A stretch of 64,000 bases of DNA from Octopus vulgaris (taxonomy: Eukaryota): the NCBI GenBank assembly GCA_951406725.2, contig OX597818.1, forward strand, positions 82,336,001 through 82,400,000, in the 5' to 3' direction. Both the position numbers and the translations under genes were made by a program. Positions 34,813-43,157 of the stretch are shown piece by piece (position 1 is the first letter of the stretch; the number at the start of each line of letters is the position of its first letter). Below the pieces are notes generated by a model that saw nothing but the letters and a program-made list of their open reading frames with translations, did no database searches and was not told the origin of the DNA.

Positions 34813-35235
34813 AGCGCAAGAGTGGCTGTGTGGTAAGTAGCTTGCTTACCAGCCACATGGTTCCGGGTTCAGTCCCACTGCGTGGCACCTTGGGAAAGTG
34901 TCTTCTACTATAGCCTCGGGCCGACCAAAGCCTTGTGAGTGGATTTGGTAGACGGAAACTGAAAGAAGCCCGTCGTATATATGTATATATATGTGTGTAT
35001 GTATATGTGTGTGTATGTTTGTGTGTCTGTGTTTGTTCAACCAACATCGCTTGACAACCGATGCTGGTGTGTTTACGTCCCCGTAACTTAGCGGTTCGGC
35101 AAAAGAGACCGACAGAATAAGTACTAGGCTTACAAAGAATTAGTCCTGGTGTCGATTTGATCGACTAAAGGCGGTGCTCCAGCATGGCCGCAGTCAAATG
35201 ACTGAAACAAGTAAAAGAGTAAAACAGTAAAGAGT
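34813..35235 (+). mobile_element. SINE family A, full length
   Basis: Same structure as 23140-23565. Confidence 0.9.
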
Positions 35236-36205
35236 GTAATAGATTTTAACAACTGACTCGTCGGTCATACACCACTTTGACGTCTCTTCCACAATGCAGT
35301 CTGTGCACACTTAAGCTCTTCGGCTGTCATGAAGACAGGAGTTTTTATGCATTTGCCAATACAAAAGTAGGTAAAAACCAAATGTAAACGTCAGATTCTG
35401 ATCCTCCTGTCTTTCCTCAGTCACTTGGATATGTGTAGTTGAGTAACACATTACTTTTGAGTATCTCTGCGTCTCTGTAAGTCTTGAAAGACTGAATTAC
35501 GTTTTTATATCATCTAACTTACCCGATAGAGTTACGCATTCTCACATGCTTTGGCCGGAGCCTAGCCTAACTACACTTCCAATAGTATACACATTCCACT
35601 CCGTTTCCTTTTAAACAAAAGTATGGCACCGTCTTCATAAAATTTTCCTGGATACTTTTATCCTCAAAGGAGTTTTGAGTCTGTAGTATACATTTTCCTC
35701 GTGGTTTTCCTCTGGTTGGAGTAGGCCGATATCCGGTATTCTTTTTAGGCTTACAATATCACCAAAGAATGATTCTGAGTTTCTTGTAGGTGTCCTTGAA
35801 GTGTCATTTGAGTCGGTGTACATCTGTAATGCGAAACAAGTATTTAGAAACATCACATGGAACACAAATCTTGACAACCAGCTTATGTACTTCCATAGAA
35901 AAGAACAAGTAGTGTGGAGCGACTGACCTCCCTTGTTCGAAGGTTATATGGATACAGTTTGTGTATCAAATAGCTAACTTAAGGCGATGGCCTCATGGAG
36001 CTAATAAGCGGACAGCTTTTTTCTTATTTTTATAAGAATGCCATATTAGTATGGCGATAACTATTATTTTCCGGGAACGCTGCCGCTGTTCTCTTTTAGA
36101 GAGACTTAGTTATTTTAATATTTCTATTATTGAAAACAAGTGGATGTATTCCACCGAAACTAGGTAAATAAAACCATCGAACAGAGATTGTCGGAAGCGA
36201 CACCT

Positions 36206-36267
36206 ACTGGCTGGCTACGCTGCATTGAAAAGGGGCAATACCCTGAAACGCGTCTGTAGCTGCCGGT
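36206..36267 (+). ncRNA. Type I hammerhead ribozyme, copy 1 (predicted cleavage after C36254)
   Basis: gctgca-TTGAAAA-gggg caata ccct-GAAA-cgcg-TC-tgtagc, with a distal stem I extension actggc/gccggt and palindromic stem III acgcgt. Confidence 0.85.
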
Positions 36268-36567
36268 CAAGTAGTGTGGAGCGACTGACCTCCCTTGTTC
36301 GAAGGTTATATGGATACAGTTTGTGTATCAAATAGCTAACTTAAGGCGATGGCCTCATGGAGCTAATAAGCGGACAGCTTTTTTCTTATTTTTATAAGAA
36401 TGCCATATTAGTATGGCGATAACTATTATTTTCCGGGAACGCTGCCGCTGTTCTCTTTTAGAGAGACTTAGTTATTTTAATATTTCTATTATTGAAAACA
36501 AGTGGATGTATTCCACCGAAACTAGGTAAATAAAACCATCGAACAGAGATTGTCGGAAGCGACACCT

Positions 36568-36629
36568 ACTGGCTGGCTACGCTGCATTGAAAAGGGGCAA
36601 TACCCTGAAACGCGTCTGTAGCTGCCGGT
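36568..36629 (+). ncRNA. Type I hammerhead ribozyme, copy 2 (cleavage after C36616)
   Basis: Identical to copy 1. Confidence 0.85.
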
Positions 36630-36784
36630 CAAGTAGTGTGGAGCGACTGACCTCCCTTGTTCGAAGGTTATATGGATACAGTTTGTGTATCAAATAGCTA
36701 ACTTAAGGCGATGGCCTCATGGAGCTAATAAGCGGACAGCTTTTTCTTATTTTTATAAGAATGCCATATTAGTATGGCGATAAC

Positions 36785-36854
<70 letters not shown>

Positions 36855-36920
36855 CTGTGTGTTTGTGTGTATGCATATATATATGTATATACGCACATAC
36901 ATAAATACATACATACATAT

Positions 36921-36970
<50 letters not shown>

Positions 36971-37188
36971 GAAATATTAAAATAACTAAGTCTCTCTAAA
37001 AGAGAACAGCGGCAGCGTTCCCGGAAAATAATAGTTATCGCCATACTAATATGGCATTCTTATAAAAATAAGAAAAAAGCTGTCCGCTTATTAGCTCCAT
37101 GAGGCCATCGCCTTAGTTAGCTATTTGACACACAAACTGTATCCATATAACCTTCGAACAAGGGAGGTCAGTCGCTCCACACTACTTG

Positions 37189-37250
37189 ACCGGCAGCTAC
37201 AGACGCGTTTCAGGGTATTGCCCCTTTTCAATGCAGCGTAGCCAGCCAGT
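37189..37250 (-). ncRNA. Type I hammerhead ribozyme, copy 3 (inverted)
   Basis: Exact reverse complement of copy 1. Confidence 0.85.
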
Positions 37251-37821
37251 AGGTGTCGCTTCCGACAATCTCTGTTCGATGGTTTTATTTACCTAGTTTC
37301 GGTGGAATACATCCACTTGTTTTCAATAATAGAAATATTAAAATAACTAAGTCTCTCTAAAAGAGAACAGCGGCAGCGTTCCCGGAAAATAATAGTTATC
37401 GCCATACTAATATGGCATTCTTATAAAAAATAAGAAAAAAGCTGTCCGCTTATTAGCTCCATGAGGCCATCGCCTTAAGTTAGCTATTTGATACACAAAC
37501 TGTATCCATATAACCTTCGAACAAGTAGTGTGGAGCGACTGACCTCCCTTGTTCGAAGGTTATATGGATACAGTTTGTGTATCAAATAGCTAACTTAAGG
37601 CGATGGCCTCATGGAGCTAATAAGCGGACAGCTTTTTTCTTATTTTTATAAGAATGCCATATTAGTATGGCGATAACTATTATTTTCCGGGAACGCTGCC
37701 GCTGTTCTCTTTTAGAGAGACTTAGTTATTTTAATATTTCTATTATTGAAAACAAGTGGATGTATTCCACCGAAACTAGGTAAATAAAACCATCGAACAG
37801 AGATTGTCGGAAGCGACACCT

Positions 37822-37883
37822 ACTGGCTGGCTACGCTGCATTGAAAAGGGGCAATACCCTGAAACGCGTCTGTAGCTGCCGGT
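37822..37883 (+). ncRNA. Type I hammerhead ribozyme, copy 4 (cleavage after C37870)
   Basis: Identical to copy 1. Confidence 0.85.
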
Positions 37884-38039
37884 CAAGTAGTGTGGAGCGA
37901 CTGACCTCCCTTGTTCGAAGGTTATATGGATACAGTTTGTGTATCAAATAGCTAACTTAAGGCGATGGCCTCATGGAGCTAATAAGCGGACAGCTTTTTT
38001 CTTATTTTTATAAGAATGCCATATTAGTATGGCGATAAC

Positions 38040-38109
<70 letters not shown>

Positions 38110-38407
38110 CTGTGTGTTTGTGTGTATGCATATATATATGTATATACGCACATTGCATATATATGTATATACATACATATATAAAATAACAAACATGAGT
38201 AAAAATTGGGAAAATAACTTACACCTGTTTCAGCCAAGAGGTAAAGATACCTCATTCTACCTTTATTGCTCAAGTGGCGTGAAGTAGATGAAAATGAAGT
38301 ACTTGGGTATATCTCTAGTCTTCGTCAGAGATTATAAAGTACATAATGTTAAGTTATAAATAAACATAAATATAAATATAAAATAATTAAAAATACACAC
38401 ATTTGAA

Positions 38408-38462
<55 letters not shown>

Positions 38463-39925
38463 TTATTATTAATATTATTAATAGTAGATACATTCCGTTA
38501 ATGACAATAGATATAATATCGAATGTAGAATATAGAATATAATATATAAACAGATATAAACAGATACATAATATATAAACGGGTGTTGGTGAGTTTACAT
38601 CCCCGTAACTTAGCGGTTCGGGAAAAAACAGATAGATAACGTACCAGACTTTAAAAAATTGTTATGAGATAGATTACTAGGAGTAAAATTCCCCAGGGCA
38701 GTTCTCTTTATGGTCGCTGTCTAATGACTTAAACAAGTAAAAGATATATATCATATACATCGAAAACCTCTTTTCGATAGAAAACGTTAAAGGCTGTCCA
38801 TGGGACTCGAAATCGTCTACGAAATCCCTATCTTGTCTACAAGGGATCTAGATTTGTATCACACAAGTAATCTTCGATTTTTTCCATCGAAAATGTGTTT
38901 TCAAACTAACATCTACATAAATTTATGTATAGCATTTATTTATTTCGAGATCCTGTTCCTAAATATCGGTATGTTTCAACTTACGTTGTTTCCAGTTACG
39001 TCTTTTCGACATTTTGTCTTTATCTTCATAAAGAAATTAATCCCAATTTTGATCAATTTATTCTACTTTACGTCCGTCTCAGCGAATATATTTAAAAGCA
39101 TGAAAATTGTGGCATGAAATGCTATTAAAAACCAATACTGAATTTGAAAAGCAAGTAAAATAAACGTGGAAGTATGCACAAACCATTTATTAAAATACAT
39201 AAGCTAATACATTTTCTAAAATGTTTTTCGTGTTTCGCCGCTTTTCGAGTTAAGACTAATATCTTGGTACCAATTACTCACGTAAGCTGAGGTGTGCTTG
39301 CATAGAGAAATATATGTGCATTAAGTGAAAAGGAGAGAAAGAGAAACAGTAGAAGAGCGGTGTAAAGAAATAGGAGAGAAAGAAGGAGAAAAAGAGAATT
39401 ATAATGTGAAAGTTTTAACTGCCAAATGATGGAGAAGCAGTGAAGTAAAAATAGCGTTACTGTTAAGAAATTCTCTAAAGTAACATCGGATTTCGTTCAT
39501 ACGATAAAATTGGGGAAAACATATGAAAAGTGCTAACATTAAATGACATGCAAAATAAATGTTAGAATATTATGGACTGAAGCATACGGCTACTAAGTAT
39601 AAAATATAAATATCTTGGACTCGGTATAGATAAATACATATAAAATCGGTGATGTATGAAAAAGATTCCTCTGATGTTTATATGGCGTACATCTACAAAA
39701 GGTTACCTTCAAGTGGGAAGTAAATAAAAAACAACTTATGATCAATAATAACAATAAAGTATAATGTTAATTAGCAATTAGCTGAAATATGTATTCGAAA
39801 GATAATTAGCGTCATGAAAATTGAAAAAATCAAAGTGGCATAGGGAATAATATAAAAACGAAGAACTACCATGTATGTATGTATGCATGTATGTATGTAT
39901 GTATGAATATTTGTATGTATGTATG

Positions 39926-40265: not shown

Positions 40266-41025
40266 TTCCTTTCTACTATAGAAACAAGACTTGAAATTTG
40301 AGGAAGCGGCTTAGCCAATTACATCGACACCAGTGTTCAACTTCTTTTGGGTTGTCCGGAAAGTTCGTGCCGATTTATAGTAGCTTACTTTTCGACGTAT
40401 TTTAGAACATGGTTGATTCCATGAAATAGGATTTCACTACACCTCCATTTAGAACATAATTTAAGTGGAAGAATGTTTATGTTCCTAATAACCTGTGTTA
40501 ATTCTGTAACCCTTTAAAATGGAAGATAAGAAAGTTCATTTTCGGCACTTGATGCTTTGGGAACTAGACTGCAGCTCGGCTGGGATGTGTTTACTCTACC
40601 CTACATATTCACCAGATACTGCTCCTTCGGATTTCTACTTATTCAGGTCTCTGCAGAATAGTCTTAATTGTAAAACTTTCAATTCCTTGGATGACGTAAA
40701 AAGATACCTTGATGAATTCTTTGCCATGAAACCACCTAAATTCTGGGAAGAGGGTATTTTCAATTTAAAGGAAACATGGAGACGTATTGTGTAACAAATG
40801 GATCATGAGTGGTTGATTAAAAATGTAATGGCAAGTATTTATTGACCTTTTTTCTTTCCTTTAAATATCGGCACGAACTTTCCGGACAACTCAATATTTA
40901 TTCATCGAAACCAAAAATGATGCAAGTCCATCTCGGTGGAATTTGAACTGAGAACGTAAAGACGGGACGAACTGCCGCTAAACATTTTGTCCAGCGTGCT
41001 AACAATTCTTCAGTTCGCCACCTTA
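40266..41025 (-). mobile_element. SINE family B monomer split by a mariner insertion
   Basis: Tail half at 40266-40343 and head half at 40897-41025 are colinear with other family B copies. Confidence 0.7.
40347..40894 (+). mobile_element. Internally deleted mariner transposon (mellifera-like)
   Basis: ~28-bp TIRs ttgggttgtccggaaagttcgtgccgat / atcggcacgaactttccggacaactcaa, with TA on the right. N-terminal MEDKKVHFRHLML is joined to C-terminal YSPDTAPSDFYLFRSLQN...GIFNLKETWRRIV. Confidence 0.92.
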
Positions 41026-42561
41026 AGAATAGTAATAATAATATCGAAAACTTAGAGAGCTTATAAAAATGAAGCGTTGTATTCGTATTAAGTGTAAGTA
41101 TTGTAGATATTTTACGAGTTAAATGTAGCTGTTGGGGGTAAATATTTTCCAGTTCTTTCAAAGATTACGTTTTATATTTGATATTAAAACAGAGCAAAGT
41201 TTAGAGTAAGGGAAAATATTTCGATAAATATCTCAATAGAAATAGGAACAGTAGGCGTAAGAAGGGTACAGATACACTATATCTATTAAGTTGAATAAAA
41301 GCAGAGGCAATCTAATTTAAAATGTAGTTACATATAATAAGTGCATTAAATATTGCAACTATAATGGTAAAACTGTGCAGAAATATGTAGATTATATACT
41401 TAGAAGAAAGAAAAGACGACTTGAATTTGAAGGATTTAGAAATTTCCAAAGGATGCAACGACAATAAGATCAGAGGTGAATCTAATGATAAGGAATGAGA
41501 TAAATGAAAGAAATAATGATCTCTGATTTTGGCACAGCGTCCACAGAATTGAAGGGAAGGTAGGGATTAGTCGATTCCCTCAATTCTAATACTTGTCTTG
41601 TACTTTATTTTATTGAACTTTGACGGAGAAACGTCTAGAAATTGCTCTGCTGTATTTGTTCTGCAAGGGACAATTTTAGCACACCATTCTTTCGACCTTC
41701 CAGAGATACTGAATCTCGCGACCAAGTGGAATGTTGGTACGTGGATAATAGTTAAGAACTGATGGAGTTTAAATTCTAATGATAATCTGACATATGAATA
41801 TAAAAATATCTATAACACCCAATAGAGCTATCAAAAGCAATAAAGAATAATTAGCAAACTATAATAGTTATGGGATTTCGGAAGCATGAGATTAATGAAA
41901 CATTGTGATAAAGGAAGTAGGTTTGTTATTAGTAGGAATAAGGGACAGGAAGCACCTTATTCCTGTGTGAGGGAGTAAGTCATATATATATATATATACT
42001 ATTTAAACATTGGTCAAGAAATATAAGGTTAAACTATGTTATTAATGTACTTCTGTATGCATTAGCGTAGATAAAGAAAATATAATATTAAAATTAGGAA
42101 AACAAGCGCAGAAATGACTGTCTGGTGAGACGTTTGCCTCAATAATCATGTCGTTCCGTTCTTAAATCCACTTTGTGGCACCTTGAGCAATTGTTTTCCA
42201 CAACAGCCTTGGCTTAAACAAGCCTTGTAAGTGAATTTATTAGGTGAAAACTGAAAGAAGCATGTTGCATATGCATGAGGTTTCCTGCCAATGATTTTTC
42301 ACCATCACCACTTAAATGGTGTTGCTGTGTCTACGTCTCCGTAACTTATCAGTTCGGCAAATGAGGGTCTTCAAAAATAAGTACTGGGATCGGTTCATTT
42401 GACTAAAATTCTTCAAGACTGAGCCCCAACATATCTGCGTTTTAGTGACTGAAACAATTAAGAAAACAAAATTTAACCACACACTAACACATATAAATGC
42501 TTCAGCTACATTTACAAAGAAATGTCTCAGGTAAACGTGCTAACGTCTCTGCCAGCTCGCC

Positions 42562-42604
<43 letters not shown>

Positions 42605-43157
42605 GTGTGTGTATGTGTGTGTGTGTGTGTGTGTGCGTGTTTGTGTGTCTGCGTTTTTCGCCCTTGACAATCGATGGTGGTGTGTTGACGTCCCCGTAAC
42701 TTAGCGGTTCGGCAAAAGATACCGAGAGAATAAGCACTAAGCTTGCAAAGAATAAGTCCTGCGGTCCATTTGCTCGACTAAAGAGGGTGCTCCAGCATGA
42801 CCACAGAAAAAAAATAAAAGAGAATTATTGTATATTATTCAATTGTTGCAGGTCGCTAACGTTCGGTAAGCTCAAGAAATTTATGGGACCAGTTTTTTAG
42901 CCCTTTTTCAACGGAAAGGGATCCTTTATTTAGAACGCCCACCTTAATTGCCCTTGCAAATAAATTGTGTAGACTCTAACTACTTACTCTCAAAATTTAT
43001 CTCTACACCGCAAATCAGTGGGGAAAATCTCGCTCTCTAATAATACCACTACTTGGTAATTATTACCTTTATTTCATTAGTACTTTAAAATAGTTTTTAT
43101 AGTAATCATTTTCCGCTACACATACATACAAACATACATACATACATTCATACATAC

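Follow-up and report, generated by a model that had tools for sequence, protein, structure and literature searches.

The window, a stretch of 64,000 nucleotides of the Octopus vulgaris genome, contains near-identical 362-bp units in which a hammerhead ribozyme motif recurs. We asked what kind of element these units belong to, and by what route they were inserted and multiplied. Judged by its sequence, the non-coding 362-bp hammerhead repeat is very probably a non-LTR retrozyme mobilised by a Penelope-like element (PLE).

Tandem-repeat analysis detected a period of 362 at 35906-36790 (2.4 copies, 99% matches), and the unit at 36255-36616 was 100% identical to those adjoining it, in agreement with the near-identical units of the original prediction. 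The motif that had been described, GCTGCA-TTGAAAA-GGGGCAATACCCT-GAAA-CGCG-TC-TGTAGC, was present with predicted cuts following 36254 and 36616, and a type I hammerhead motif was found at all four unit junctions in the window, as expected if every complete unit carries one. The units were also non-coding as proposed, with no open reading frame (ORF) of at least 70 aa wholly inside one 362-bp unit, and an ORF with reverse transcriptase (RT) and GIY-YIG domains, as in an autonomous PLE, was absent from the element. A single head-to-tail array at 35903-38045, the predicted layout, was not observed. Instead, the locus (35906-38183) was made up of three arms (A, plus; B, minus; C, plus) between (TA)n and (TA)n(TG)n tracts, with four complete hammerheads, one of them on the minus strand. 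Its features are as follows, with unit coordinates counted from 36255, the base after the predicted cut, as position 1.

35906-36790, plus strand: arm A, 2.45 units, from unit 14 to 175 (site A end), then (TA)n
36200-36275, plus strand: hammerhead 1, its stem I extended and its cut predicted to follow C 36254
36255-36616, plus strand: predicted cut-to-cut 362-nt monomer
36430-36492, plus strand: 63-nt 'tail' that separates the family's two fixed 3' ends, both with a CTATTA end
36562-36637, plus strand: hammerhead 2, predicted to pair with hammerhead 1 as a dimer and to cut after 36616
36791-36964, no strand: (TA)n(TG)n and low-complexity spacer
36965-37525, minus strand: arm B, inverted, 1.55 units, from unit 40 to 238 (site B end)
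37196-37237, minus strand: hammerhead 3, motif at 37202-37231
37522-38045, plus strand: arm C, 1.45 units, from unit 14 to 175 (site A end)
37835-37876, plus strand: hammerhead 4, predicted cut after 37870
38046-38183, no strand: (TA)n(TG)n target flank of arm C

Arms B and C, joined via a 4-nt microhomology (CAAG), are a typical two-arm insertion of the retrozyme family. Arm A had both its 5' start and its downstream flank in common with arm C and was a copy of arm C and ~145 bp of flank, with one unit more: the first ~145 bp of the spacer at 36791-36964 repeated the flank after arm C, and the (TA)n at the right end of the spacer was the target of arm B. Arm A also had a 7-nt microhomology to the B/C junction. 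It may be a secondary duplication of arm C at the near-palindrome, or an assembly mis-join. What remained of the predicted layout was the 362-bp tandem units within the arms, the simple array being replaced by an inverted two-arm insertion and an apparently duplicated arm.

The flank upstream of the element (35300-35900) was single-copy, and the one ORF tested in it had no Pfam match. A 29-nt low-complexity flank string occurred three times in the window (36869, 38124 and 40089), the third copy lying 2 kb downstream and outside the element. Copies of abundant SINE-like repeats, which we take to be octopus SINEs, were present at 34820-35220, 38580-38740 and 42560-42830. A 94-aa frame at 40510-40794 gave no significant Pfam match; we take it to resemble a mariner transposase fragment. 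At another locus (L170, G000:C1:90654000-90658000) the junction coordinates were equal to those of the window (unit 14 and 40, with the CAAG microhomology), with the arms swapped.

In hammerhead 1, stem I (36219-36224/36255-36260) encloses the core UUGAAAA (36225-36231), stem II (36232-36244) and the palindrome ACGCGU (36248-36253). The helices measure 6 bp (I), 4 bp (II) and 1-2 bp (III, palindromic), and these sizes, together with the extension of stem I, fit the 'canonical' metazoan type rather than the minimal hammerhead that had been suggested. A UAC/U internal loop and a CAAUA or CAAAUA loop were present, and we presume that they resemble known tertiary-contact loops (loop 2/stem I bulge). 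The core reads U3-U4-G5-A6-A7-A8-A9, which makes the 3-8 pair U-A. By the canonical type I definition of PMC4209133, the 3-8 pair, G5, G12-A13-A14, A15.1-U16.1 and H17 were all present; core positions were partly fixed by our search patterns, so core invariance is not independent evidence.

The expectation that standard searches would miss this variant core was confirmed with Rfam, which returned no hammerhead match even at E<=10 and whose miRNA matches were microsatellite artefacts. The core had been overlooked by Rfam, but it was not new to the literature: the U3-A8 variant has been reported from nature and as active in vitro (PMC3088659), is also found in Schistosoma Cercyon PLEs (PMC4209133), and the heptamers UUGAAAA and UUGAUAA appear in Schistosoma entries, one marked PLE (PMC4209133, supplement file 2). 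Another candidate hammerhead, at unit 237-275 (TTGAAAA ... GAAAC TAG GTA), was rejected, as it had no stem I register and its GAAA was lost in several older units.

Across 30 aligned variants, 92.6% of the stem-pair cells were paired, and all 30 kept U3-A8 and a stem III palindrome (ACGCGU, ACAUGU or ACUAGU). Covariation, which had been put forward as a check on the ribozyme, was seen in the stems by one measure: 37 cells were changed on both sides of a pair, against 12.0 after shuffling, and none of 500 shuffles reached that count. This covariation distinguishes few subfamilies and so counts few events, and two pair-type measures were not above shuffles (282/500 and 334/500). Compensatory pairs were also found elsewhere in the unit.

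The unconstrained fold of a two-unit transcript had a double hammerhead as its predicted optimum, with pair probabilities of 0.84-1.0 for the palindrome and a predicted energy of -195 kcal/mol vs -172 for two single hammerheads; the dimer mode that had been proposed for a palindromic stem III is consistent with this prediction. The hammerhead is quite likely active. For comparison, one of nine Xenopus retrozyme dimers cleaved in vitro (bioRxiv 10.64898/2026.07.22.740005). The circular fold of the 362-nt monomer reached -121 kcal/mol (z -6.5), and its stability was discarded as a strand-specific signal because the reverse strand was even stronger (z -7.5).

A search of the genome with the unit, also named in the original prediction, covered 2.8 Gb in 227 contigs and returned 1,126 dispersed first-look candidates; many of the full units, although from different contigs, were 99-100% identical. 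The hammerhead pattern had 1,261 genome matches vs 8 for a reversed control; in most of them a G-C pair closed stem II, and the G-U subfamily of the window accounted for 77. Contig C1 held 97 matches in 53 loci, a density that extrapolates to a family of roughly 700 loci. With a second pattern, for older subfamilies, 739 motifs were found vs 0 for the control, and the units of these subfamilies were 77-85% identical. Unit length was 360-365 nt in 36 of 38 distinct units, the other two carrying insertions. As these matches indicate, the 362-bp repeat is a dispersed family, and its young subfamily is recent.

Near-identical units were also seen in public runs (X8, X12, X16 and X17 among them) under seven organism labels; the young subfamily may be common to related species, or the samples may be mislabelled. 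In contigs from 8 of the 20 runs with the unit, the unit was covered and a back-joint at 362 was seen, a pattern that tandem DNA gives equally. A 392-nt closed contig in two public runs was not counted as a circle, since tandem DNA would give the same. These runs, none of those listed being recorded as RNA and the ones used being only guessed to be so, were available as contigs, which cannot show RNA ends, strand or circles.

Insertion ends were compared at 112 young loci besides that of the window (198 arms and outer ends), chosen by a full-unit or hammerhead match, so that long arms are over-represented. The arms matched the unit end to end in the sampled loci. Arm ends at unit 168-180 (~175) were assigned to site A and those at 229-240 (~238) to site B; the two sites are 63 nt apart and both end in CTATTA. 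Both ends could be classified at 81 inverted loci: 80 had one arm at site A and the other at site B, the remaining one was B+B and none was A+A. The other young loci were inverted with one odd end (6), single-armed (24) or complex (1). The same pairing was found among 29 loci of older subfamilies, with A+B in 11 of 12 classified inverted loci and B+B in one. TA-rich DNA or (TA)n adjoined 177 of the 198 outer ends. The 5' ends were variable, with arms of 0.1-10 units (longest 9.9), and arm junctions mostly had an overlap of 1-6 nt. The longest arms (4.8-9.9 units), at L212 (G000:C2:130696300-130701800), L185, L217 and L224, mark candidate source loci; at L212, a variant was present in two units, spaced by two.

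PLE insertions comprise partial tandems, are truncated at the 5' end, and carry an inverted 5' copy and a one-sided tail (PMC8557442). This pattern has been attributed to a predicted dimer that nicks both strands, with RT starting at two internal sites (PMC11167929). Read against this, the end pattern of the octopus family is the Penelope 'tail' signature, and the near-absolute A+B pairing would be expected if both primings occurred on one RNA. Penelope-type ends, the type I hammerhead and dispersed non-coding tandem units of the 150-450 bp class together lend support to the retrozyme reading of the original prediction.

The same ends bear on whether the repeat could be a detached pseudo-LTR (pLTR) or satellite, amplified at the DNA level by unequal crossover or Helitron-like rolling circle, with the hammerhead as a passive relic. 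Li et al. propose local pLTR amplification (bioRxiv 10.64898/2026.07.22.740005), and arm A resembles a DNA-level duplicate of arm C. However, the family consists of hundreds of dispersed short loci with fixed 3' ends, random 5' ends and strict A+B pairing, the hammerhead stems contain compensatory changes, and no pLTR-like use of the repeat was found in an ORF-bearing PLE among 50 GIY-YIG loci. The end statistics largely refute this explanation, and we consider it very improbable.

If the retrozyme is PLE-mobilised, the RNA that served as template should be reflected in variants common to the units of a locus. We counted rare variants, defined as present in no more than 2 of 113 loci, wherever a site was covered at least three times; arms shorter than 60 nt or less than 93% identical were excluded, as were the 12 nt at arm ends and bases close to gaps. 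Of 121 events, 100 were confined to a single unit and 12 extended to every unit, while 4 were missing from one unit only and 5 were in some. At six loci, a rare variant was present in all units of both arms, which implies a one-unit stage and then multimerisation, as a circle would give; ~1/6 of loci were sampled, and small homogeneous sub-lineages could mimic such a one-unit bottleneck. For common variants, 126 of 158 events were in all copies within the locus. The rare variants in all units of both arms suggest one-unit, probably circular, templates, and on balance a monomer circle would be the main one. RNA editing was rejected as a source of the variants, as no A>G bias was found among the rare ones (A>G 16 vs T>C 25, p 0.28).

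Three loci (L206, L016 and L027) had a rare variant in one matching unit of each arm only; these fit multimer templates, and a monomer circle leaves them unexplained. They favour a template that was mostly an uncut linear multi-unit transcript starting near unit 39-49, with the element otherwise the same and PLE-dependent. The hammerhead would then be slow, protein-gated or otherwise used, and unit number would rise by DNA-level duplication. Arm 5' ends also accumulated at unit 38-49, whichever pass they belonged to (33 of 198 vs 6.6 expected); this points the same way, and the hotspot may be a transcription start, an RT stall or a structure in a linear multimer. Unprocessed RNA is moreover the dominant substrate of the anole PLE, and PLE insertion in vitro needed no cleavage (both PMC11167929). 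We nevertheless regard a mainly linear template as unlikely: the variants fixed in all units of both arms at six very young loci need a one-unit stage, linear copying only shortens arrays, yet arms reach 9.9 units at ~99% identity, and unit length is held at 360-365 across subfamilies. The hotspot (window 36292-36303) is pyrimidine-rich and lies at the base of a long rod stem.

A one-unit bottleneck would also result if the RNA were cut to linear monomers and the RT jumped between monomer ends, either within one molecule or to another, with no covalent circle. Slightly more arm 5' ends than expected lay at the cut (10 of 198, expected 4.9, p 0.03), as such jumping could leave them, but only 5 clean cut-site junctions were found genome-wide, the uniformity of haplotypes within loci (the 126 of 158 events above) makes jumps between molecules rare, and indels, judged by eye, were not seen piling up at the junction. 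End-to-end jumping therefore appears improbable, and a pile-up of arm 5' ends at the cut was itself rejected on the small number of clean junctions and the weak excess in the sample. The cut site was crossed by 153 of 198 arms, a figure inflated by the selection of loci on full-unit or hammerhead matches.

It is likely, from these patterns, that a Penelope-like RT/GIY-YIG protein copies the retrozyme from an RNA that is predicted to cleave itself and is probably circular. The most far-reaching version of this reading, to which we give a probability of about 45%, is that the insertions record double-primed rolling-circle retrotransposition by a dimeric Penelope RT/endonuclease on a ligated 362-nt circle. 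Multi-unit transcripts would fold as double hammerheads via the stem III palindrome and cut after GUC, and a lone monomer, with no partner palindrome, would be stable and could be ligated into a circle. A dimeric PLE protein would then nick both (TA)n strands and prime two cDNAs on a shared RNA, at site A and site B respectively. The RTs would each circle the template for a variable length, and the two cDNAs would be joined 5' to 5' via microhomology, their tails facing outwards in the (TA)n tract.

A protein of this kind was sought by a GIY-YIG search, which gave 6,136 candidates, of which 150 were scored and 50 loci examined. At 16 of its 20 examined loci, one family (L111-L127 and L129, e.g. 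G000:C4:116248000-116256000) had an uninterrupted frame of 781 codons (765 aa counted from Met) that matched RT and GIY-YIG, and the 16 intact ORFs were a median 99.3% identical. By its CX4CxxC linker the family is Neptune/Nematis-like. Its 3' repeat carries a UUGAUAA hammerhead with an ACAUGU stem III, the palindrome of older retrozyme subfamilies. Like the retrozyme, this family is young, targets (TA)n and has two 3' ends, the long one in CTATTA, and all three of its inverted loci pair a short with a long end. The ends lie 69 and 101 nt after the cut (a 32-nt tail), as against 175 and 238 in the retrozyme, and there is no significant overall sequence similarity: blastn detected no homology between the two, and local alignment was at chance level. 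When anchored at its end, the last 72 nt of the family aligned best at unit 174-177, a borderline result (1 of 25 shuffles as high); against two older units the test was not significant (4 and 5 of 25 shuffles as high). We tentatively propose this 765-aa RT/GIY-YIG family as the helper of the retrozyme, at a little under even odds.

The long 3' UTR of the 765-aa family contains repeated GATTGGTCA/GATGACGTC motifs that are promoter-element-like. Two more GIY-YIG lineages (L096, L102, L210 and L211; and L097) share the UUGAUAA core with its U3-A8 pair; L096 and L102 have GCAA in place of the GAAA box. One of the 50 GIY-YIG loci carries an older retrozyme copy as a separate insertion. A resemblance of the retrozyme to the PLE family of L128 was dismissed as chance.

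The octopus repeat is a known kind of element, a retrozyme, and not a new class of element. With the metazoan non-LTR retrozymes of coral, Mytilus and axolotl (PMC7229834; see also bioRxiv 10.64898/2026.07.22.740005) it shares non-coding tandem units of 150-450 bp (350-390 in mussel, PMC7229834; 362 here), one type I hammerhead per unit, GC <50%, a self-paired circular fold, a palindromic stem III and co-occurring PLEs. It differs from them in its U3-A8 core and in its mostly short two-armed inverted insertions with two fixed ends in (TA)n, which we did not find described in those reports. Circles were shown there and are predicted here. Like it, the EN+ PLEs (PMC8557442; anole Poseidon, PMC11167929) occur as partial tandems with 5' truncation, an inverted 5' copy and a one-sided tail, start reverse transcription at two internal sites downstream of the hammerhead, and insert into AT-rich or (TA)n targets that are nicked on both strands. 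Unlike them, the retrozyme has no ORF, its tail is 63 nt and not 30-40, its hammerhead is canonical and not minimal, and one complete unit is roughly as long as a pLTR. The Schistosoma Cercyon PLE hammerheads (PMC4209133) share the heptamers UUGAAAA and UUGAUAA, but their motifs are minimal, mostly single and have one additional base ahead of stem II, in contrast to the long stem I and tandem units found here. No cephalopod retrozyme and no two-site retrozyme ends were found in the literature searched; repeat libraries or supplements may list the family, and an O. vulgaris repeat annotation reports 31 recently active Penelope-like families, with the word 'ribozyme' absent from its main text (PMC13282606).

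In the published accounts considered here, the link between retrozymes and PLEs is proposed from co-occurrence and pLTR similarity, and the insertion mode is not shown. The octopus family is young and abundant, so that the insertion mechanism can be read from its ends, and an intact candidate RT is available in the same genome. Sharp predictions follow from the strict pairing of start sites and the one-unit bottlenecks: cDNA should start at 175 and 238, a circle of 362 nt should exist, and only dimers should be cleaved. If correct, double-primed rolling-circle copying would be direct evidence for the long-proposed link and would explain the inverted-repeat-plus-tail structure of PLEs, with a young candidate enzyme at hand in the same genome. 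Most insertions are long inverted repeats and the family is consequently a likely source of dsRNA, in a group of animals, the cephalopods, known for heavy RNA editing.
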